Numbered from the stretch's first letter, positions 4,147-15,339 are shown. The stretch: DNA of 64,000 bases from Escherichia coli (GCF_051903065.1 NZ_CP178438.1); one strand, 5' to 3'. Notes: generated by a model from the sequence alone, not told the origin. Made by a program: numbers and translations.

Positions 4147-5361
4147 TTACCAGTTCCACAGCGTGCCATCTTCCAGACGTGCGACTGGTAGATAAGCAGG
4201 TTCATAGGGATATTTCGCCGCCAGCTTTTCATCGAATTCGATACCAAGACCCGGTTTGTCTCCCGGATGCATATAGCCGTTATCGAAAGTCCAGTTGTGC
4301 GGGAAGACTTCGAGCATTTGTTCGGAATAACCCATGTATTCCTGGACACCGAAATTGGGGACCCACAGATCAAAGTGCAGCGCCGCAGCCATGCAGACTG
4401 GTGACAAATCGGAAGGACCGTGTGAGCCAGTACGTACCTGATACAACGAAGCAAAATCGGCAATCCGGCGCATACCGGTAATTCCGCCTGCATGGGTCAG
4501 CGTGGTGCGGATATAATCGATGAGTTGCTCTTCAATCAGTTGTTTGCAGTCCCAGATGCTGTTGAAGACTTCACCCACAGCGATGGGTGTGACGGTATGT
4601 TGGCGAATGAGACGGAAGCATTCCTGGTTTTCCGCAGGCGTCGGGTCTTCCATCCAGAACATGCGATAATCTTCAATGCTTTTACCAAAGCGCGCCGCTT
4701 CAATAGGCGTTAAGCGATGGTGCATGTCATGCAGCAAATGTTCATTAAAACCAAACTTGTTACGTACCGCGTCAAACAATTTCGGCATGAAATCGAGGTA
4801 TTTCTCCGTCGACCACAGCTGCTCTTCCGGCCACTGTCCTTTGGTTGCGGGTTCATAAGCCAGACCTTTACCTTTCGACATGCCGTAGGTGGTTTTCATA
4901 CCAGGGATTCCGCACTGCACGCGGATGGCTTTGAATCCCAGCTCCTGATGACGGGCATAATCATCCAGAGCTTCATCAATACTGTGACCGGTGGTATGGC
5001 AATAAACCATCACCCCTTCACGAGATGCGCCGCCGAGTAACTGGTAAAGCGGCATGTTGGCAGCTTTGGCTTTAATATCCCACAGCGCCATATCAACCGC
5101 TGAAATGGCCGACATCGTAACCGGACCGCGACGCCAGTAAGCACCTTTATAGAAAAACTGCCAGATATCTTCGATACGGTGCGCATCGCGACCAATAAGC
5201 TGCGGACAAAGGTGATCCTGCAAATAAGAGGCCACGGAAAGCTCACGTCCATTGAGGGTGGCATCCCCAAGGCCCGTAATACCGTCCTCAGTGGTGATTT
5301 TTAATGTGACGAAATTACGCCCCGGACAGGTAACAAAAACTTCAGCCTTTACGATCTTCAT
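4147..5361 (-). CDS. rspA: enolase-superfamily dehydratase (mannonate dehydratase-like) starvation-sensing protein
   Basis: Start set at [17 protein letters not shown]…. Forms a tandem operon with rspB. Confidence 0.9.
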
Positions 5362-6027: not shown

Positions 6028-6369
6028 ATGAAAATCACTCTCAGCAAACGAATCGGCCTGCTCGCTTTTCTGCTGCCTTGCGCACTGGCATTGAGCACAA
6101 CTGTTCATGCCGAAACTAACAAACTGGTGATTGAGTCTGGCGACAGTGCACAAAGCCGCCAGCACGCCGCTATGGAAAAAGAGCAATGGAATGACACGCG
6201 CAATCTGCGTCAGAAAGTGAATAAACGCACTGAAAAAGAGTGGGATAAAGCCGACGCCGCTTTTGATAACCGCGATAAATGTGAGCAAAGCGCCAACATC
6301 AATGCCTACTGGGAGCCCAATACTTTGCGCTGCCTGGACCGTCGAACTGGCCGCGTTATTACCCCCTAA
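6028..6369 (+). CDS. ynfB: secreted/periplasmic protein of unknown function (UPF0482)
   Basis: 113 aa with an N-terminal signal peptide ([28 protein letters not shown]). Confidence 0.85.
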
Positions 6370-6403
6370 CCTGTTATTGATTTAAGGAATGTAAGGACAC
6401 GTT

Positions 6404-6964
6404 ATGCCAAGCGCCCACAGTGTTAAGCTACGCCCGCTGGAGCGTGAAGATTTACGCTATGTACATCAACTCGACAATAACGCCAGTGTGATGCGTTACT
6501 GGTTTGAGGAACCCTACGAAGCCTTTGTTGAACTCTCTGATCTGTATGATAAGCATATTCACGATCAGAGCGAACGACGCTTTGTGGTGGAATGTGACGG
6601 CGAAAAAGCCGGTCTGGTGGAGTTGGTGGAAATTAACCATGTACATCGCCGCGCAGAATTTCAGATAATTATCTCCCCGGAGTATCAGGGGAAAGGTCTG
6701 GCAACCCGTGCCGCCAAATTAGCAATGGACTATGGCTTCACCGTTCTCAATCTCTATAAGCTGTATCTGATCGTCGATAAAGAGAATGAAAAAGCGATTC
6801 ACATTTACCGCAAGCTTGGCTTTACGGTTGAAGGTGAATTGATGCATGAGTTCTTTATTAATGGTCAATATCGTAATGCCATTCGCATGTGTATATTCCA
6901 GCATCAGTATCTGGCAGAGCACAAAACACCGGGTCAGACTCTCCTGAAGCCGACCGCACAATAG
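6404..6964 (+). CDS. speG: spermidine N1-acetyltransferase (GNAT family)
   Basis: 186 aa, [23 protein letters not shown]…; recognisable as SpeG. Confidence 0.95.
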
Positions 6965-6966
6965 CA

Positions 6967-7677
6967 TTAATAATAATCGATTGTATTTTTGATGGTGTAA
7001 ACCCGTTCGACGGCGGGTTTTACTCCTTCATCAACAATGATTAGCTGACAGTCCACCGGATTGGCGTGACTGTCATATTCACAGCTCTGTTTTACATTAC
7101 CAACCCGTTGATTGTTCAGTAAAGTAACCGCTGTGTAATCTAATTTTTTGATCGGATCCGTTGATGGCGTGGCGCTGACAGATAATGTTTTGTCGTTACT
7201 TTTCGTGGTTTTACCTAGCGGATACCCCTGATCATCATAGCGATATTCCATCTGCATCTGTTTGCTGCTGGCTTTAATCACGAAGCCATTATCATCGGTT
7301 TCCCAACTCACCCCGGCGGAAGGTAATTCCGCTAGCTGGCATTTTCCCTGTAAACGTACTCTCTTCTCCAGCGTCTCAGCATCACGGTAATAATTGGCGT
7401 CCAGTACCAGAGCGACCACGGTATTATTTTCCAGATCCAGTAATTCGAGTGAATCAAAACAGCCTTCTTCCGACAAAGTCCCCGAAACACGTTTCGTCAC
7501 TTCACCTTGCTCATCCATTAATGTCTGAGTGAAATCTTTTACCGGACCACGCAGCGGATCAAAATCGAATTCATTAGAGAAACTGGCCATCTCAGGGGTA
7601 AATGAAAGTGTTACCTCTGTGCGGTCACATCCTGTGAGGAATATCGCGAGTAAGCATGGTAGTAATTTGTATTTCAC
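6967..7677 (-). CDS. ynfC: lipoprotein of unknown function (UPF0257)
   Basis: GTG start inferred at 7677 (…VKYKLLPCLLAIFLTGCD, lipobox LTGC). The track ORF has an upstream in-frame ATG, so the true start is uncertain. Confidence 0.8.
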   Translation of the reverse strand: MKYKLLPCLLAIFLTGCDRTEVTLSFTPEMASFSNEFDFDPLRGPVKDFTQTLMDEQGEVTKRVSGTLSEEGCFDSLELLDLENNTVVALVLDANYYRDAETLEKRVRLQGKCQLAELPSAGVSWETDDNGFVIKASSKQMQMEYRYDDQGYPLGKTTKSNDKTLSVSATPSTDPIKKLDYTAVTLLNNQRVGNVKQSCEYDSHANPVDCQLIIVDEGVKPAVERVYTIKNTIDYY

Positions 7678-7784
7678 AACAGTCACCAGAGAGTAGAGAT
7701 GATTCTCAATCATAGTAGCAAATACAGTACTTTACACGTTAAATGCTATGCTTAAAGAAGTTATCTTCGCGTAAGGAGCTTATG

Positions 7785-8090
7785 ATGAAACTCTCAACCT
7801 GCTGTGCCGCGCTTCTGCTCGCCCTCGCCTCACCCGCGGTACTCGCCGCGCCGGGATCCTGTGAGCGCATACAGAGCGATATATCACAGCGCATTATCAA
7901 TAATGGCGTACCCGAAAGCAGCTTCACGTTAAGTATTGTACCCAATGACCAGGTTGATCAGCCTGATTCCCAGGTCGTCGGGCATTGTGCTAATGATACG
8001 CATAAAATTCTCTACACCCGCACCACCAGCGGTAACGTCTCTGCTCCCGCGCAGTCTACCCAGGATGGCGCGCCTGCCGAACTGCAGTAA
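7785..8090 (+). CDS. ynfD: secreted protein of unknown function (DUF1161)
   Basis: Start at the second Met of MMKLSTCCAALLLALASPAVLA (signal peptide); 101 aa. Confidence 0.8.
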   Translation: MKLSTCCAALLLALASPAVLAAPGSCERIQSDISQRIINNGVPESSFTLSIVPNDQVDQPDSQVVGHCANDTHKILYTRTTSGNVSAPAQSTQDGAPAELQ

Positions 8091-8174
8091 TACATTATCG
8101 ACTGAACGCCGGATACGACGCATCCGGCGATTTGAACATATAACATAACCCACCTTATTACTCATACCCTTCTA

Positions 8175-8188
8175 TTGATATGGATTAA
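8175..8188 (+). promoter_or_regulatory. candidate FNR-type site (TTGAT-N4-ATTAA) upstream of ynfE
   Basis: ttgatatggattaa matches TTGAT-N4-ATCAA with one mismatch, about 100 bp upstream of the ynfE start. The ynfEFGH operon is known to be anaerobically expressed. Confidence 0.35.
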
Positions 8189-8287
8189 TAATTCTTAACC
8201 CAAAATGGGTAGACTCCCTCTATTGTTAGCGCGCTAAATATTCAATATATAAACTTTTATATAACGATAAAGAACAGGGAGTGAGTT

Positions 8288-10714
8288 ATGTCCAAAAATG
8301 AACAAATGGTGGGCATCAGCCGCAGAACACTCGTTAAATCTACCGCGATAGGTTCTCTGGCGCTGGCTGCAGGCGGTTTTTCTTTACCGTTTACCCTGCA
8401 CAGTGCAGCAGCAGCGGTACAACAGGCCCGCGAAAAAGTGGTCTGGGGTGCCTGTTCTGTCAACTGTGGTAGCCGCTGTGCACTTCGTCTACATGTTAAA
8501 GATAATGAAGTGACCTGGGTGGAAACTGACAATACCGGCAGCGATGAGTACGGCAACCATCAGGTACGCGCCTGTTTGCGCGGTCGCTCCATCCGCCGGC
8601 GTATTAATCATCCCGATCGCTTGAATTACCCAATGAAACGCGTGGGCAAACGCGGCGAAGGCAAATTCGAACGGATTAGCTGGGATGAAGCCCTGGATAC
8701 TATCGCCAGTAGCCTGAAGAAAACCGTCGAACAATATGGCAATGAGGCTGTATATATTCAGTACTCTTCGGGGATCGTTGGCGGCAATATGACCCGCTCT
8801 TCGCCATCAGCCTCGGCGGTCAAACGCCTGATGAACTGCTACGGCGGTTCACTCAATCAGTATGGCTCCTACAGCACCGCACAAATTTCCTGTGCCATGC
8901 CCTACACCTACGGCAGTAATGATGGCAACAGCACCACGGATATTGAAAACAGCAAGCTGGTCGTGATGTTTGGTAACAACCCGGCAGAAACCCGCATGAG
9001 CGGCGGTGGCATCACTTATCTTCTTGAAAAAGCGCGCGAGAAATCGAACGCCAAAATGATTGTTATCGATCCGCGATATACCGATACGGCTGCTGGTCGT
9101 GAGGATGAATGGCTTCCTATTCGCCCGGGCACCGATGCCGCGCTGGTTGCGGGGATTGCCTGGGTATTGATTAACGAAAATCTCGTTGATCAACCTTTTC
9201 TCGATAAATACTGCGTCGGCTATGACGAAAAAACCTTACCCGCAGATGCACCCAAAAATGGTCACTATAAAGCCTATATTCTTGGTGAAGGTGATGATAA
9301 CACAGCGAAAACGCCGCAGTGGGCTTCGCAAATTACCGGTATCCCGGTGGACCGTATCATCAAACTGGCGCGTGAAATTGGCACAGCAAAACCCGCTTAT
9401 ATCTGCCAGGGCTGGGGGCCGCAACGCCAGGCAAACGGCGAGCTGACTGCACGCGCTATTGCTATGTTGCCTATTTTGACGGGCAATGTCGGCATCAGCG
9501 GCGGAAATAGTGGCGCGCGTGAATCGACCTATACCATTACCATAGAGCGACTGCCGGTGCTGGATAATCCGGTCAAAACGTCAATTTCCTGCTTCAGTTG
9601 GACAGATGCTATCGATCATGGTCCGCAAATGACGGCAATCCGCGACGGCGTCCGCGGCAAAGATAAACTGGATGTGCCCATTAAGTTCATCTGGAACTAC
9701 GCGGGAAATACCCTGGTTAATCAGCATTCTGACATCAACAAAACGCATGAAATTCTGCAAGACGAATCGAAATGCGAAATGATTGTGGTCATCGAAAACT
9801 TTATGACCTCATCGGCAAAATATGCCGACATTCTGCTGCCAGACCTGATGACCGTTGAGCAGGAAGATATTATTCCTAACGACTACGCCGGTAACATGGG
9901 ATATCTCATTTTCCTCCAGCCTGTCACCAGCGAAAAATTCGAACGCAAACCGATTTACTGGATCCTGAGTGAAGTCGCGAAACGTCTTGGACCTGACGTC
10001 TATCAAAAGTTCACAGAAGGTCGTACGCAGGAACAATGGTTACAACATCTGTACGCCAAAATGCTTGCCAAAGATCCGGCGTTACCGTCTTACGACGAAC
10101 TGAAAAAAATGGGTATCTATAAGCGTAAAGATCCCAATGGTCATTTTGTCGCCTACAAAGCATTTCGTGACGACCCCGAGGCAAATCCACTTAAAACACC
10201 TTCCGGTAAGATTGAAATTTATTCCAGCAAGCTGGCGGAAATTGCCCGTACCTGGGAACTGGAAAAAGATGAAGTGATAAGCCCACTGCCAGTTTATGCC
10301 TCTACCTTTGAAGGCTGGGACTCACCTGAACGTAGAACCTTCCCACTGCAACTGTTTGGTTTCCATTACAAATCCCGTACTCACTCGACCTACGGCAATA
10401 TTGATCTCCTGAAGGCTGCCTGCCGTCAGGAGGTGTGGATCAACCCTATAGATGCGCAGAAACGTGGGATTGCCAACGGCGATATGGTGCGGGTGTTTAA
10501 CCATCGTGGCGAAGTTCGGCTACCAGCCAAAGTGACACCACGTATTCTCCCTGGAGTTAGCGCTATGGGCCAGGGAGCCTGGCACGAGGCCAATATGTCT
10601 GGCGATAAAATCGACCATGGAGGCTGTGTGAATACGCTAACCACTCTGCGCCCTTCACCACTGGCGAAGGGAAACCCGCAGCATACGAATCTGGTCGAGA
10701 TCGAAAAAATATAA
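8288..10714 (+). CDS. ynfE: Tat-exported molybdopterin (bis-MGD) oxidoreductase catalytic subunit, DmsA paralog (selenate reductase)
   Basis: 808 aa with twin-arginine signal (SRRTLVKSTAIGSLALAAGG) and an N-terminal Cys cluster (CSVNCGSRC). Confidence 0.95.
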   Translation: MSKNEQMVGISRRTLVKSTAIGSLALAAGGFSLPFTLHSAAAAVQQAREKVVWGACSVNCGSRCALRLHVKDNEVTWVETDNTGSDEYGNHQVRACLRGRSIRRRINHPDRLNYPMKRVGKRGEGKFERISWDEALDTIASSLKKTVEQYGNEAVYIQYSSGIVGGNMTRSSPSASAVKRLMNCYGGSLNQYGSYSTAQISCAMPYTYGSNDGNSTTDIENSKLVVMFGNNPAETRMSGGGITYLLEKAREKSNAKMIVIDPRYTDTAAGREDEWLPIRPGTDAALVAGIAWVLINENLVDQPFLDKYCVGYDEKTLPADAPKNGHYKAYILGEGDDNTAKTPQWASQITGIPVDRIIKLAREIGTAKPAYICQGWGPQRQANGELTARAIAMLPILTGNVGISGGNSGARESTYTITIERLPVLDNPVKTSISCFSWTDAIDHGPQMTAIRDGVRGKDKLDVPIKFIWNYAGNTLVNQHSDINKTHEILQDESKCEMIVVIENFMTSSAKYADILLPDLMTVEQEDIIPNDYAGNMGYLIFLQPVTSEKFERKPIYWILSEVAKRLGPDVYQKFTEGRTQEQWLQHLYAKMLAKDPALPSYDELKKMGIYKRKDPNGHFVAYKAFRDDPEANPLKTPSGKIEIYSSKLAEIARTWELEKDEVISPLPVYASTFEGWDSPERRTFPLQLFGFHYKSRTHSTYGNIDLLKAACRQEVWINPIDAQKRGIANGDMVRVFNHRGEVRLPAKVTPRILPGVSAMGQGAWHEANMSGDKIDHGGCVNTLTTLRPSPLAKGNPQHTNLVEIEKI

Positions 10715-10774
10715 CCCACTACAACCATAAATTCTGGCATGACATTTTGTTTGAAAAGCAATAAGTGAGTAATG

Positions 10775-13198
10775 ATGAAAATCCATACCACAGAGGCGCT
10801 CATGAAGGCTGAAATCAGCCGTAGAAGTCTGATGAAAACCTCCGCACTTGGCAGTCTTGCGCTGGCAAGCAGTGCTTTCACTCTGCCATTTTCCCAAATG
10901 GTCCGGGCGGCACAGGCTCCGGTAGAAGAGAAAGCGGTCTGGAGTTCCTGCACCGTTAACTGCGGGAGCCGCTGTCTGTTACGTTTGCATGTGAAAGATG
11001 ACACCGTGTACTGGGTGGAGTCTGATACGACAGGTGACGACGTCTACGGTAATCATCAGGTTCGAGCGTGTTTACGCGGGCGCTCTATCCGCCGACGGAT
11101 GAATCATCCTGATAGGTTGAAATATCCCATGAAGCGCGTCGGCAAGCGCGGTGAAGGTAAATTTGAACGGATAAGTTGGGACGAAGCCCTGGATACCATC
11201 AGTGATAATCTTCGGCGGATCCTAAAAGATTACGGCAATGAGGCTGTACATGTCCTGTACGGAACAGGTGTAGATGGCGGAAACATCACCAACTCAAACG
11301 TCCCGTACCGTCTGATGAACTCTTGCGGTGGTTTTCTCAGTCGCTATGGCAGCTACAGTACCGCACAGATCAGTGCCGCAATGAGTTATATGTTCGGTGC
11401 CAATGATGGCAACAGCCCGGATGATATCGCCAATACGAAACTGGTCGTTATGTTCGGAAATAACCCGGCAGAAACGCGGATGAGCGGTGGTGGTGTCACT
11501 TACTACGTCGAGCAAGCCCGCGAACGTTCAAACGCACGCATGATCGTCATCGATCCACGTTATAACGACACAGCTGCCGGGCGTGAAGATGAATGGCTGC
11601 CCATTCGCCCTGGCACCGATGGCGCACTGGCCTGTGCGATTGCCTGGGTGCTGATTACTGAAAACATGGTCGATCAGCCATTTCTCGACAAATATTGTGT
11701 TGGTTACGATGAAAAAACGCTGCCCGCCAACGCACCACGTAACGCGCATTATAAAGCCTATATTCTGGGCGAAGGGCCTGACGGCATAGCTAAAACGCCG
11801 GAATGGGCAGCAAAAATCACCAGCATTCCGGCAGAAAAAATTATCCAGTTGGCACGAGAGATCGGTTCAGCAAAACCTGCTTATATTTGTCAGGGTTGGG
11901 GGCCACAACGACATTCCAACGGCGAGCAAACATCCCGCGCTATTGCCATGCTTTCCGTTCTCACCGGTAACGTCGGCATAAACGGCGGCAACTCAGGTGT
12001 ACGCGAAGGTAGCTGGGATCTGGGGGTAGAATGGTTCCCGATGCTTAAGAATCCTGTTAAAACGCAGATTTCCGTCTTTACATGGACAGATGCCATCGAC
12101 CATGGTACGGAAATGACCGCGACCCGTGATGGTGTTCGTGGAAAAGAAAAACTGGATGTCCCCATCAAGTTTTTATGGTGCTACGCCAGTAACACATTGA
12201 TCAATCAACATGGCGACATCAATCACACCCATGAGGTGCTTCAGGATGACAGCAAGTGCGAGATGATTGTTGGCATTGACCACTTCATGACGGCCTCGGC
12301 TAAGTATTGCGATATCCTGTTGCCCGACCTGATGCCAACAGAGCAAGAAGACCTTATCTCTCATGAATCTGCAGGGAATATGGGCTATGTGATCCTCGCC
12401 CAACCCGCAACCTCAGCAAAATTTGAACGCAAACCCATCTACTGGATGCTGAGTGAAGTCGCCAAACGCTTAGGACCGGACGTTTATCAAACCTTTACTG
12501 AAGGTCGCAGTCAGCATGAATGGATCAAATATCTCCATGCGAAAACGAAGGAACGTAACCCTGAGATGCCCGACTACGAGGAGATGAAAACGACCGGGAT
12601 CTTTAAGAAAAAATGCCCGGAAGAACACTACGTCGCTTTCCGCGCATTCCGTGAAGATCCACAGGCAAACCCGTTGAAAACACCTTCGGGGAAAATCGAA
12701 ATTTATTCTGAACGACTGGCGAAGATTGCAGATACCTGGGAATTGAAAAAAGATGAAATTATTCATCCCCTTCCTGCGTATACCCCAGGTTTTGATGGCT
12801 GGGACGATCCCCTGCGGAAAACCTATCCACTGCAGTTAACGGGCTTCCACTACAAAGCGCGTACCCACTCCAGCTACGGCAATATTGATGTGTTACAGCA
12901 GGCCTGCCCACAAGAGGTGTGGATCAACCCCATTGATGCTCAGGCTCGCGGTATCCGTCATGGCGATACCGTGCGGGTATTTAACAATAATGGAGAAATG
13001 CTGATTGCCGCAAAAGTGACTCCGCGTATTCTGCCTGGCGTTACCGCCATCGGGCAAGGTGCGTGGCTTAAAGCGGATATGTTTGGTGACCGGGTCGATC
13101 ACGGCGGCAGTATTAATATTCTGACCTCTCACCGCCCTTCACCGCTGGCAAAGGGAAACCCGTCGCACAGCAATCTTGTCCAGATCGAAAAGGTTTAA
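10775..13198 (+). CDS. ynfF: Tat-exported molybdopterin oxidoreductase catalytic subunit, tandem paralog of ynfE
   Basis: Start at MKIHTTEALMKAEISRRSLMKT…. Aligns along its full length with the ynfE product. Confidence 0.95.
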   Translation: MKIHTTEALMKAEISRRSLMKTSALGSLALASSAFTLPFSQMVRAAQAPVEEKAVWSSCTVNCGSRCLLRLHVKDDTVYWVESDTTGDDVYGNHQVRACLRGRSIRRRMNHPDRLKYPMKRVGKRGEGKFERISWDEALDTISDNLRRILKDYGNEAVHVLYGTGVDGGNITNSNVPYRLMNSCGGFLSRYGSYSTAQISAAMSYMFGANDGNSPDDIANTKLVVMFGNNPAETRMSGGGVTYYVEQARERSNARMIVIDPRYNDTAAGREDEWLPIRPGTDGALACAIAWVLITENMVDQPFLDKYCVGYDEKTLPANAPRNAHYKAYILGEGPDGIAKTPEWAAKITSIPAEKIIQLAREIGSAKPAYICQGWGPQRHSNGEQTSRAIAMLSVLTGNVGINGGNSGVREGSWDLGVEWFPMLKNPVKTQISVFTWTDAIDHGTEMTATRDGVRGKEKLDVPIKFLWCYASNTLINQHGDINHTHEVLQDDSKCEMIVGIDHFMTASAKYCDILLPDLMPTEQEDLISHESAGNMGYVILAQPATSAKFERKPIYWMLSEVAKRLGPDVYQTFTEGRSQHEWIKYLHAKTKERNPEMPDYEEMKTTGIFKKKCPEEHYVAFRAFREDPQANPLKTPSGKIEIYSERLAKIADTWELKKDEIIHPLPAYTPGFDGWDDPLRKTYPLQLTGFHYKARTHSSYGNIDVLQQACPQEVWINPIDAQARGIRHGDTVRVFNNNGEMLIAAKVTPRILPGVTAIGQGAWLKADMFGDRVDHGGSINILTSHRPSPLAKGNPSHSNLVQIEKV

Positions 13199-13208
13199 GG
13201 AGTAGCCC

Positions 13209-13826
13209 ATGACCACACAATATGGATTTTTTATCGATTCCAGCCGCTGTACTGGCTGTAAAACCTGCGAACTGGCGTGCAAAGATTTTAAAGATCTTGG
13301 CCCGGAAGTCAGTTTCCGCCGTATTTATGAATATGCTGGCGGCGACTGGCAGGAAGATAATGGCGTCTGGCACCAGAACGTGTTCGCTTATTATCTCTCC
13401 ATCTCCTGTAACCATTGCGATGACCCCGCATGTACAAAAGTCTGCCCCAGCGGCGCAATGCATAAGCGTGAAGATGGCTTTGTGGTGGTTGATGAAGATG
13501 TTTGTATCGGCTGCCGCTACTGCCACATGGCTTGTCCGTACGGCGCACCACAGTACAATGCTGAAAAAGGGCACATGACGAAGTGCGATGGTTGTTATTC
13601 GCGCGTCGCCGAGGGGAAACAACCCATATGTGTCGAATCCTGCCCGCTGCGTGCACTTGAGTTCGGTCCAATTGAAGAGCTGCGCCAGAAGCACGGCACT
13701 CTTGCTGCCGTCGCGCCACTGCCGCGCGCGCATTTCACAAAACCCAATATCGTTATCAAACCTAACGCCAACAGCCGCCCGACCGGCGATACCACTGGTT
13801 ATCTGGCTAATCCGGAGGAAGTGTAA
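13209..13826 (+). CDS. ynfG: 4Fe-4S ferredoxin-type electron-transfer subunit (DmsB paralog)
   Basis: Four Cys clusters (CTGCKTCELAC, CNHCDDPACTKVCP, CIGCRYCHMACP, CDGC…CVESCP). Confidence 0.95.
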   Translation: MTTQYGFFIDSSRCTGCKTCELACKDFKDLGPEVSFRRIYEYAGGDWQEDNGVWHQNVFAYYLSISCNHCDDPACTKVCPSGAMHKREDGFVVVDEDVCIGCRYCHMACPYGAPQYNAEKGHMTKCDGCYSRVAEGKQPICVESCPLRALEFGPIEELRQKHGTLAAVAPLPRAHFTKPNIVIKPNANSRPTGDTTGYLANPEEV

Positions 13827-13827
13827 A

Positions 13828-14682
13828 ATGGGAAATGGATGGCATGAATGGCCACTGGTTATCTTTACCGTATTGGGTCAATGCGTAGTAGGCGCGCTGA
13901 TTGTTAGCGGAATTGGCTGGTTCGCCGCCAAAAATGACGCAGACCGTCAGCACATTGTTCGTGGCATGTTTTTCCTCTGGCTGTTGATGGGCATCGGGTT
14001 TATTGCCTCTGTCATGCACCTGGGATCGCCACTGCGGGCGTTTAACTCGCTGAATCGAATCGGAGCTTCTGGTCTGAGTAACGAGATTGCTGCCGGTTCC
14101 ATATTTTTTGCCGTTGGCGGACTATGGTGGCTGGTGGCGGTCATCGGTAAAATGCCGCAAGCGTTGGGGAAACTCTGGTTACTTGTCAGCATGGCGCTCG
14201 GCGTCATTTTCGTCTGGATGATGACCTGCGTGTATCAAATCGACACTGTGCCAACCTGGCATAACGGTTACACTACGCTGGCTTTCTTCCTGACGGTATT
14301 GTTGAGTGGTCCAATACTTGCTGCCGCAATTCTGCGGGCAGCCCGCGTTACATTTAATACCACACCATTTGCCATCATTAGCGTTCTGGCGCTGATCGCT
14401 TGTGCCGGGGTGATTGTGCTGCAAGGTTTGTCTCTGTCGTCTATTCACTCATCCGTGCAACAAGCCAGCGCACTGGTACCAGATTACGCCTCCTTACAGG
14501 TCTGGCGTGTGGTATTGTTATGCGCAGGTCTAGGATGCTGGCTTTGTCCGCTCATACGTCGCCGTGAACCTCACGTTGCCGGACTTATTCTGGGGTTAAT
14601 CCTCATTCTTGGCGGTGAGATGATCGGGCGTGTGCTCTTTTATGGCCTGCACATGACGGTAGGAATGGCTATTGCAGGTTAA
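13828..14682 (+). CDS. ynfH: membrane anchor subunit (DmsC paralog)
   Basis: ATG at 13828, directly after the ynfG stop. Polytopic hydrophobic 284-aa product starting MGNGWHEWPLVIFTVLGQ. The track ORF is an artefactual 5' extension overlapping ynfG. Confidence 0.9.
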   Translation: MGNGWHEWPLVIFTVLGQCVVGALIVSGIGWFAAKNDADRQHIVRGMFFLWLLMGIGFIASVMHLGSPLRAFNSLNRIGASGLSNEIAAGSIFFAVGGLWWLVAVIGKMPQALGKLWLLVSMALGVIFVWMMTCVYQIDTVPTWHNGYTTLAFFLTVLLSGPILAAAILRAARVTFNTTPFAIISVLALIACAGVIVLQGLSLSSIHSSVQQASALVPDYASLQVWRVVLLCAGLGCWLCPLIRRREPHVAGLILGLILILGGEMIGRVLFYGLHMTVGMAIAG

Positions 14683-14724
14683 CAAATTGGTGCGGGGCAA
14701 CCCGCACATTTCAGGATGTTAGGA

Positions 14725-15339
14725 ATGACCCATTTTTCACAGCAAGATAATTTTTCTGTCGCGGCGCGCGTGTTGGGCGCGCTGTTTTATTACGCTCCAG
14801 AGAGTGCTGAAGCCGCACCTCTGGTTGCGGTACTCACCAGTGACGGCTGGGAAACTCAGTGGCCTCTACCAGAAGCGTCATTAGCGCCGCTGGCGACGGC
14901 TTTTCAGACACAGTGTGAAGAGACTCTCGCCCAGGCCTGGCAGCGTTTGTTTGTCGGCCCGTGGGCACTGCCGTCTCCGCCGTGGGGATCGGTCTGGCTG
15001 GATCGCGAATCTGTGCTGTTTGGCGATTCAACATTGGCACTTCGTCAGTGGATGCGCGAGAAAGGCATTCAGTTTGAAATGAAGCAAAATGAACCGGAAG
15101 ATCATTTTGGTTCATTGCTGTTGATGGCTGCGTGGTTGGCGGAGAATGGTCGCCAGACAGAATGCGAAGAATTGCTGGCATGGCACCTTTTTCCCTGGTC
15201 AACACGTTTTCTTGACGTTTTTATCGAAAAAGCAGAACACCCTTTCTACCGTGCACTGGGTGAACTGGCTCGCTTAACGCTGGCGCAATGGCAATCACAA
15301 CTGTTAATTCCTGTCGCGGTTAAACCATTCTTTCGATAG
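14725..15339 (+). CDS. dmsD: Tat proofreading chaperone for DMSO-reductase-family enzymes
   Basis: Start at MTHFSQQDNFSVAARVLGALFYY…; 204 aa; last gene of the ynfEFGH-dmsD operon. Confidence 0.9.
   Translation: MTHFSQQDNFSVAARVLGALFYYAPESAEAAPLVAVLTSDGWETQWPLPEASLAPLATAFQTQCEETLAQAWQRLFVGPWALPSPPWGSVWLDRESVLFGDSTLALRQWMREKGIQFEMKQNEPEDHFGSLLLMAAWLAENGRQTECEELLAWHLFPWSTRFLDVFIEKAEHPFYRALGELARLTLAQWQSQLLIPVAVKPFFR

Follow-up and report, generated by a model that had tools for sequence, protein, structure and literature searches.

The neighbouring genes ynfE and ynfF, carried on a 64,000-nucleotide stretch of an Escherichia coli chromosome (GCF_051903065.1, NZ_CP178438.1; hereafter the window, to which all coordinates refer), are very probably ancient tandem paralogues that encode Tat-exported alternative catalytic subunits of a single selenate/tellurate reductase, the product of the ynfEFGH-dmsD operon. 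A local duplication that included the ribosome-binding site would have given rise to them before Escherichia and Salmonella separated, and the copies would since have evolved independently under purifying selection. On rare occasions, in-register homeologous crossovers may collapse the pair into one intact chimeric gene.

Two catalytic subunits on a probably shared electron-transfer module

The first gene, ynfE (8288-10714, + strand), encodes a catalytic subunit of 808 aa and was identified from the ORF list, the RefSeq annotation of a 100% identical genome, three Pfam domains and the NCBIfam YnfE model. The second catalytic subunit gene, ynfF (10772-13198, + strand), was identified from the ORF list, annotation, Pfam and the NCBIfam YnfF model. 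Its product has 808 aa when read from the first ATG (10772) and 807 aa from the RefSeq-annotated ATG (10775); the gap after the ynfE stop codon is 57 nt to the former and 60 nt to the latter. The original prediction had described two genes of about 2.4 kb, in direct tandem 60 bp apart and alignable over their full length, and this description holds for the two 808-codon reading frames. In BLASTP, YnfE and YnfF are identical at 565 of 799 positions (71%), with 85% positives, 5 gap positions and E = 0, and the alignment runs end to end (residues 10-808 against 15-808), a similarity far beyond chance.

The gene names, and the assignment to Tat-exported molybdoenzyme catalytic subunits, had also been predicted, and both are confirmed by 100% identical annotated genomes and by specific NCBIfam models. 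Both proteins carry the Pfam domains Molybdop_Fe4S4, Molybdopterin and Molydop_binding, in that order and above gathering score, and both exceed the cut-off of TIGR02166, the DmsA/YnfE/YnfF subfamily model (777.7 bits; 1399.6 for the first reading frame and 1286.5 for the second). The YnfE model NF041885 (cut-off 1675 bits) accepts the first (1795.1) and rejects the second (1481.7), as expected of a paralogue; reciprocally, the YnfF model NF041884 (cut-off 1650 bits) accepts the second (1774.6) and rejects the first (1475.3). Catalytic subunits of the DMSO-reductase family bind Mo-bisPGD and an N-terminal [4Fe-4S] cluster. The corresponding cysteine group, CxxNCGSRC, reads CSVNCGSRC in YnfE (C56/C60/C64, 8453-8479) and CTVNCGSRC in YnfF (C60/C64/C68, 10949-10975), with a conserved RACLRGRS cysteine downstream in both.

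Each N-terminus has a twin-arginine motif followed by a hydrophobic stretch, together predicted to form an export signal (ISRRTLVKSTAIGSLALA in YnfE, ISRRSLMKTSALGSLALA in YnfF); the motifs are ISRRTLVK (8315-8338) and ISRRSLMK (10814-10837). Thus the claim of a shared N-terminal Cys cluster stands, but calling the signal peptides near-identical overstated the case: by our own count the stretch from the RR motif to LPF agrees at 17 of 26 positions, and the n-regions ahead of the motif (9 residues in YnfE, 14 in YnfF) are unrelated. The same lack of relationship has been remarked on for the n-regions of Salmonella YnfE and YnfF (PMC5203670).

A 5.5-kb query around the pair is 100% identical to annotated E. 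coli chromosomes, in which the gene order is ynfD, ynfE, ynfF, ynfG, ynfH, dmsD, clcB. The window has the layout of a YnfEFGH-DmsD operon, with the catalytic genes followed by ynfG, ynfH and dmsD (13209-15339) and with matching Pfam families throughout. All three downstream genes lie on the + strand: ynfG (13209-13826; annotation, Fer4_11 and related Pfam families) encodes a presumably shared four-cluster iron-sulfur electron-transfer subunit, ynfH (13828-14682; annotation, Pfam DmsC, E = 4.5e-128) a presumably shared membrane anchor of the DmsC family, and dmsD (14725-15339; annotation, Pfam Nitrate_red_del, literature) a Tat-proofreading chaperone. Judging by this layout, YnfE and YnfF would be alternative heads on one YnfG/YnfH/DmsD module, in which YnfG would transfer electrons through its iron-sulfur clusters, YnfH would serve as the quinol-oxidising anchor in the membrane and DmsD as the signal-peptide chaperone. 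The result would be two isoenzymes facing the periplasm and reducing selenate and tellurate.

Upstream of ynfE, an FNR-like half-site pair, TTGATatggATTAA (8175-8188, + strand), departs from the FNR consensus TTGAT-N4-ATCAA at one position and is a candidate site for anaerobic activation of the operon promoter; ynfEFGHI is presumably under FNR control. The spacer between the two genes (10715-10774, + strand) contains ynfF's own ribosome-binding site, AAGTGAGTAATG, which is homologous to that of ynfE, GAGTGAGTTATG. An AGTGAG motif precedes both E. coli genes as well as the ynfF orthologues of Salmonella, C. amalonaticus and Pseudocitrobacter. Since the motif stands before both genes, the duplicated unit took in the ribosome-binding site.

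The spacer is also the region from which published regulation of ynfF is known: RyhB represses a ynfF(-60..+24)-lacZ fusion, and dmsA is likewise a RyhB target (PMC4666370). RNA duplex folding predicts a RyhB pairing site over the Shine-Dalgarno sequence and start codon of ynfF (10755-10775, + strand), where nt 39-57 of RyhB would pair over 17 bp around a 2-nt bulge (dG -20.8 kcal/mol). The mean for shuffled targets was -11.3 +/- 3.0, and 0.4% of them reach the observed value. For this we folded the core region of RyhB, as the full-length RNA gave over-extended duplexes. The predicted duplex is weaker for ynfE (-17.9) and stronger for dmsA (-29.5). In this folding model the gap between ynfF and ynfE is modest, and it is not enough on its own to account for the specificity reported for RyhB.

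What the operon does is known only from genetics in the literature, which attributes selenate/tellurate reductase activity to it (Lubitz & Weiner 2003, Guymer et al. 2009 and Fujita et al. 2021, as these works are represented in PMC5203670, PMC12096835 and PMC12724226). Its product is a membrane-bound selenate reductase that faces the periplasm; in Salmonella, YnfE is the main selenate-reducing catalytic subunit and YnfF makes a small contribution, and DmsD binds the signal peptides of YnfE, YnfF and DmsA (PMC5203670). Dependence on the Tat pathway is likewise documented in published work. The E. coli proteins have been called paralogous isoenzymes, and selenate reduction is abolished by deletion of ynfEF (PMC12724226). 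Tellurate reduction is attributed to ynfEF by a reference within PMC12096835. The question raised by the original prediction, whether the two subunits have diverged in substrate specificity, is legitimate, already in the literature and answered in part. Divergence would lie in the signal-peptide n-region and, according to the published data, in regulation (RyhB acting on ynfF) and in activity (YnfE dominant in Salmonella selenate reduction).

Age and independent evolution of the copies

Codon-aligned, ynfE and ynfF are 69% identical in DNA, with 78%, 83% and 46% identity at codon positions 1, 2 and 3, and their longest common exact run is 17 nt. Nei-Gojobori distances give a saturated pS of 0.72 and a dN of 0.215. 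The original prediction had implied a recent duplication and had named low identity as the evidence that would speak against it; a recent origin is ruled out by these codon-position identities and distances, and Salmonella has orthologues of both genes. Orthologue identity between E. coli and Salmonella is 88.5% for YnfE and 92.5% for YnfF. Because both orthologues occur in Salmonella, the duplication is older than the Escherichia/Salmonella split.

A quartet of the E. coli and Salmonella genes shows no sign of gene conversion since that split: orthology is supported by 262 nucleotide sites, conversion by 68 and the control pattern by 62 (136, 2 and 3 at amino-acid sites). Ongoing conversion between the copies was rejected on this basis, the conversion pattern being no commoner than the control. 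A rival account would make the pair a recent duplication kept alike by gene conversion, and hence an active hot spot of deletions and amplifications. The genes do match in length and orientation and are separated by 57 nt, as such an account would have it, and in-register deletions do exist (see below). We nevertheless consider it scarcely credible: synonymous sites are saturated, no identical run exceeds 17 nt, Salmonella has both copies, and the quartet counts give conversion no excess.

Strong purifying selection acts on both genes where they occur: the E. coli-Salmonella comparison gives a dN of 0.082 for ynfE and 0.053 for ynfF, and dN/dS within E. coli is 0.03-0.07 (0.07 for ynfF).

We scanned species-representative genomes and considered 80 of 560 loci with YnfE-type genes (79-96% identity), from Enterobacteriaceae, Yersiniaceae and Budvicia. 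Among these 80 of 560 loci, ynfF orthologues occur in few genera: a true orthologue (89-92% identity) lies directly 3' of ynfE in S. enterica subsp. arizonae and diarizonae, Citrobacter amalonaticus and Pseudocitrobacter faecalis. Most other Enterobacteriaceae at these loci, Escherichia whittamii included, have a single E-type gene followed by ynfG-ynfH-dmsD, which indicates that one copy is dispensable in many lineages. At some of the 80 loci the E-type gene is followed by dmsD alone, and in several Yersiniaceae by a DmsA-type gene.

Methods disagree on where the duplication belongs in the phylogeny. In a neighbour-joining tree the F clade (100% bootstrap) is sister to all Enterobacterales E-type genes (99%) on a long stem, and F groups with E and not with DmsA-type genes (100%). 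Polarised-site counts conflict with this position, as F carries 6-7 of 8-11 residues derived in Enterobacteriaceae E-type proteins. The E. coli paralogues themselves are nearly equidistant (71.6% E-F, 68.6% E-DmsA, 67.3% F-DmsA), and informative triplet sites number 98 for F+E, 74 for E+DmsA and 64 for F+DmsA. Together, the few genera and the shared derived residues hint at an origin within Enterobacteriaceae with early acceleration, possibly misplaced by neighbour-joining. A mosaic origin of YnfF from YnfE and DmsA was also rejected: sliding windows gave no clear blocks, and apart from the N-terminal window and a single short internal segment YnfF was nowhere closer to DmsA.

These data bear on a second alternative, in which ynfF came by horizontal insertion between ynfE and ynfG from a distant DmsA-family gene, and no local tandem duplication took place. 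The patchy distribution of ynfF among the 80 of 560 loci, its long and basal stem branch, its near-equidistance from YnfE and DmsA, and an F-G junction that resembles the ancestral E-G junction of single-copy species would all fit such an event. It is quite unlikely, however, given that F groups with E and not with DmsA-type genes at full bootstrap, that most of the Enterobacteriaceae-specific derived E-type residues are present in F, that the same AGTGAG ribosome-binding motif precedes both genes, and that the 80 of 560 loci include no potential donor with a closer relative. An old local duplication remains our preferred reading of the pair.

Rare fusions and commoner losses in E. coli

We surveyed 5426 complete E. 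coli genomes. The E-F junction is kept in 5289 of them (97.5%), at 5291 places in total. With the junction single in these genomes and only two extra places, tandem amplification of ynfE-ynfF was not seen by the junction query in the 5426 genomes. In SCU-176, which has two ynfE places, the locus is normal. This near-universal single junction, without tandem amplification, again speaks against a deletion/amplification hot spot.

Deletions were sought with a split query (window 6288-8787 plus 12699-15198), whose halves are joined into one place only where 0.9 kb or more of the intervening sequence has been lost. A joined place was found in 24 of the 5426 genomes, and 10 of these 24 had lost exactly one 2484-bp unit, leaving an intact 808-codon hybrid gene. 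Painting at sites that differ between ynfE and ynfF gave a clean E-to-F switch in the hybrids, and these ten genomes comprise the two junctions described below as types 1 and 2. The original prediction had proposed checking genomes for fusions or single-copy variants, and such a check turns up four rare types of ynfE'-'ynfF chimera, all with crossovers on the + strand. In type 1 (JCC-EE 7, FELIX_MS533) the crossover falls in a 14-nt run, AACCCGGCAGAAAC, at ynfE nt 691-704 (8978-8991), with its partner in ynfF at 11462-11475. The crossover interval of type 2 (ECONIH4, CAVP776 and the 0H15-0H26 strains) is ynfE nt 1147-1156 (9434-9443). Type 3 (P0005; loci L095 and L096) crosses in a 9-nt run at nt 1021-1029 (9308-9316) and type 4 (P0006; loci L097 and L098) in a 6-nt run at nt 1288-1293 (9575-9580). 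An exact-sequence look-up of the chimeric proteins placed type 2 on 68 contigs and type 1 on 2. Types 3 and 4 are 808-residue proteins of the same protein cluster, encoded in single-copy ynfD-chimera-ynfG-ynfH-dmsD loci.

At least four independent in-register events must thus have occurred. Each crossover sits at a very short identical run inside sequence of about 70% identity, and the chimeras would have formed by homeologous recombination or template switching. Out-of-register deletions are no rarer than in-register ones. The other deletions examined were all out of register or internal: ynfE nt 1497 is joined to ynfF nt 185 in one case and nt 834 to ynfF nt 282 in another, ynfE nt 1070 is joined to ynfG nt 15, and an in-frame deletion internal to ynfE removes nt 954-2233. 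The minimal efficient processing segment for RecA is about 25 bp of uninterrupted identity, and the pair falls short of an efficient substrate, with a longest identical run of 17 nt and 69% DNA identity. The predicted role as a substrate for homologous recombination therefore survives only weakly: deletion occurs (four chimera types; 10 of 5426 complete genomes), but amplification was seen in none of the 5426. The pair is nearly inert to homologous recombination because its nucleotides have diverged by 31% and no identical run exceeds 17 nt.

A tentative proposal, to which we give slightly less than an even chance, is that recurrent in-register homeologous recombination between sequences 31% diverged, at identical runs of 1-14 nt, makes intact chimeric reductases with a YnfE N-terminal and a YnfF C-terminal part, in at least four events, with one product in a circulating lineage (68 public contigs) and E. 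whittamii perhaps adding a fifth. The single-copy operon of E. whittamii may be a fusion product with its crossover at the extreme 3' end. If so, fusion of paralogues would be a normal route of gene-number reduction in the ynf operon. If the chimeras are active, they would be ready-made domain swaps for mapping the differences between YnfE and YnfF, and with these four natural chimeras one could look for the part of the protein that determines substrate preference.

Loss of one copy is far commoner through a ynfF pseudogene or a ynfE island than through fusion. Query coverage of at least 80% was found for ynfF in 4739 of the 5426 genomes and for ynfE in 5111. About 555 genomes, of ST131 type, retain parts of ynfF without nt 717-1297. 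In JJ1887 the gene lacks nt 717-1297 and nt 2072-2345 through two internal deletions and carries a pseudogene annotation; a genome labelled O25b:H4-ST131 encodes the same YnfE protein as JJ1887 and has a ynfF pseudogene that is similarly shortened and frameshifted. For ynfE, a 6.56-kb element with a site-specific integrase lies inside the gene in 145 genomes, flanked by a 15-bp direct repeat (nt 1397-1411). The gene is already among the integrase-interrupted genes of PMC7192596.

Such losses could suggest that ynfF is a redundant copy drifting to loss from an operon that works with YnfE alone. The ynfF pseudogenes in about 555 genomes (one of them labelled ST131), the lone E-type gene of most Enterobacteriaceae and E. 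whittamii among the 80 of 560 loci, and the minor part of YnfF in Salmonella selenate reduction (PMC5203670) point in that direction. We regard this as unlikely all the same. In the E. coli-Salmonella comparison ynfF has changed less than ynfE, in both dN (0.053 vs 0.082) and protein identity (92.5% vs 88.5%); its within-species dN/dS is 0.07, and it is full length in 4739 of 5426 genomes. Moreover, ynfE is lost too (145 island insertions, and in-frame deletions elsewhere), and ynfF is under RyhB control of its own (PMC4666370). Two maintained alternative subunits remain the better account.

For E. coli populations, tandem paralogues of about 70% DNA identity are effectively stable, yet occasionally fuse. 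Either copy can be lost in successful lineages, as in ST131-type strains without a functional ynfF and in the 145 genomes with a split ynfE, and studies that assume ynfE or ynfF in every strain should allow for lineage losses.

Relation to known reductases

The pair is a known, studied and annotated set of paralogues in its ordinary state, and the window, which represents the normal condition, changes little in that picture. It belongs to the same system as the YnfEFGH-DmsD selenate (tellurate) reductase of E. coli and Salmonella, with identical gene order and no differences in the window; the 71% identity published for Salmonella YnfE and YnfF is the value found in this E. coli pair (PMC5203670). 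Our additions to that system are the chimeras, the ST131-type ynfF pseudogene and a picture of where operons with one or two copies occur, and they do not amount to a new kind of system.

Like the ynf reductase, DmsABC has a three-subunit architecture with the same domain set, the DmsD chaperone and Tat export. Sequence identity of DmsA is 69% with YnfE and 67% with YnfF, and RyhB targets dmsA as well (PMC4666370). Unlike the ynf system, DmsABC has one catalytic subunit, is encoded at another locus and has DMSO and other S- and N-oxides as physiological substrates. Operons of Yersiniaceae (Serratia, Rahnella and Ewingella; loci L070, L075, L078, L080, L081 and L084-L086), in which a ynfE-type gene is followed by a dmsA-type gene and dmsBCD, share the arrangement of two tandem catalytic genes before one iron-sulfur subunit, one anchor and one dmsD. 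Their second gene, however, is DmsA-like and not YnfF-like (in Rahnella it shares 82% identity with E. coli DmsA). NarGHJI/NarZYWV and other duplicated E. coli molybdoenzymes are likewise old paralogous isoenzymes with the same cofactor chemistry and overlapping use of chaperones. In the case of NarGHJI/NarZYWV the whole operon was duplicated at a second locus, whereas in ynf the catalytic subunit alone was duplicated, within one operon.

Disruption of ynfE by an integrase element

In one comparison locus from another E. coli genome (L006), ynfE is split by a 6.56-kb element (L006:10412-16974) that carries several hypothetical genes alongside the gene for a site-specific integrase of 524 aa. 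In window coordinates the insertion lies at 9684-9698 (nt 1397-1411 of ynfE), and a 15-bp direct repeat, AGT[T/C]CATCTGGAACT, lies on both sides of the element. The integrase end and junction were identified in 145 of the 5426 complete E. coli genomes surveyed; two versions of this stretch occur, one matching the query at 100% identity and the other at about 92%. Comparison with the paralogous position in ynfF indicated that the integration site is not conserved there. ynfE has already been listed among integrase-interrupted genes (PMC7192596). A further common allele disrupting ynfE is suggested by the frequency of a truncated, 353-aa YnfE fragment (P0003), which was found on 360 public contigs.

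The L006 genome also carries exonuclease, excisionase and integrase genes at the position of the integrase next to rspB in the window, and thus the first part of the window probably contains a prophage end. The window's own gene, encoding a tyrosine-type recombinase/integrase, lies at about 2000-2928 (L001:1-929), adjoining rspB and upstream of the ynf region. An inverted repeat (GCCGGATacgacgcATCCGGC; window 8103-8130), a hairpin of REP-like or terminator-like type, lies just 3' of ynfD, before the promoter region of ynfE.

Shortened ynfF genes and the ynfF start codon

About 555 complete genomes have a ynfF pseudogene (for example, at the comparison loci L007:4001-5573 and L099:5592-7084). 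Two internal stretches are deleted from the pseudogene of E. coli JJ1887: nt 717-1297 (equivalent to window 11488-12068) and nt 2072-2345 (window 12843-13116). A genome labelled O25b:H4-ST131 encodes a ynfF pseudogene shortened in much the same way, and therefore the 'ynfF' expression reported for the ST131 strain EC958 (PMC12096835) may be that of a pseudogene. In the window, ynfF begins with ATGATG (10772-10777). The first ATG lines up with the ynfE start when measured from an AGTGAG motif common to both genes; RefSeq places the start at the second ATG (807 aa).

Single-copy and mixed operons in other genomes

Escherichia whittamii has only one ynfE-type gene (L009:7001-9460), which is 96% identical to E. 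coli YnfE and abuts ynfG. Over its final codons and the junction beyond them, the sequence matches the ynfF-ynfG junction of E. coli exactly. Either ynfF was lost via a 3'-end crossover in the common AGATCGAAAA run, or the single copy is the ancestral state.

Among the matches listed, many Enterobacter, Lelliottia, Yokenella and Intestinirhabdus loci have dmsD directly after a ynfE-type gene (L010, L013, L017, L024, L034, L035, L038 and others), and no ynfG or ynfH was detected near them. An Enterobacteriaceae-type ynfE locus (84% identity) also occurs in CACSKA010000003.1 (L059), titled 'Chryseobacterium sp. 18061', an assembly that is probably mislabelled or contaminated.

Loci with both ynfE-type and DmsA-type genes come from Serratia, Rahnella, Ewingella and Budvicia diplopodorum (L070, L075, L078, L080, L081, L084, L085, L086 and L088). 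In the listed matches from the first three genera, the ynfE-type gene is followed by the DmsA-type gene before one B-C-D set, and in Rahnella the DmsA-type copy shares 82% identity with DmsA of E. coli. Budvicia diplopodorum has two successive sets, a ynfE-type gene with ynfG and ynfH, then a DmsA-type gene with ynfG, ynfH and dmsD.
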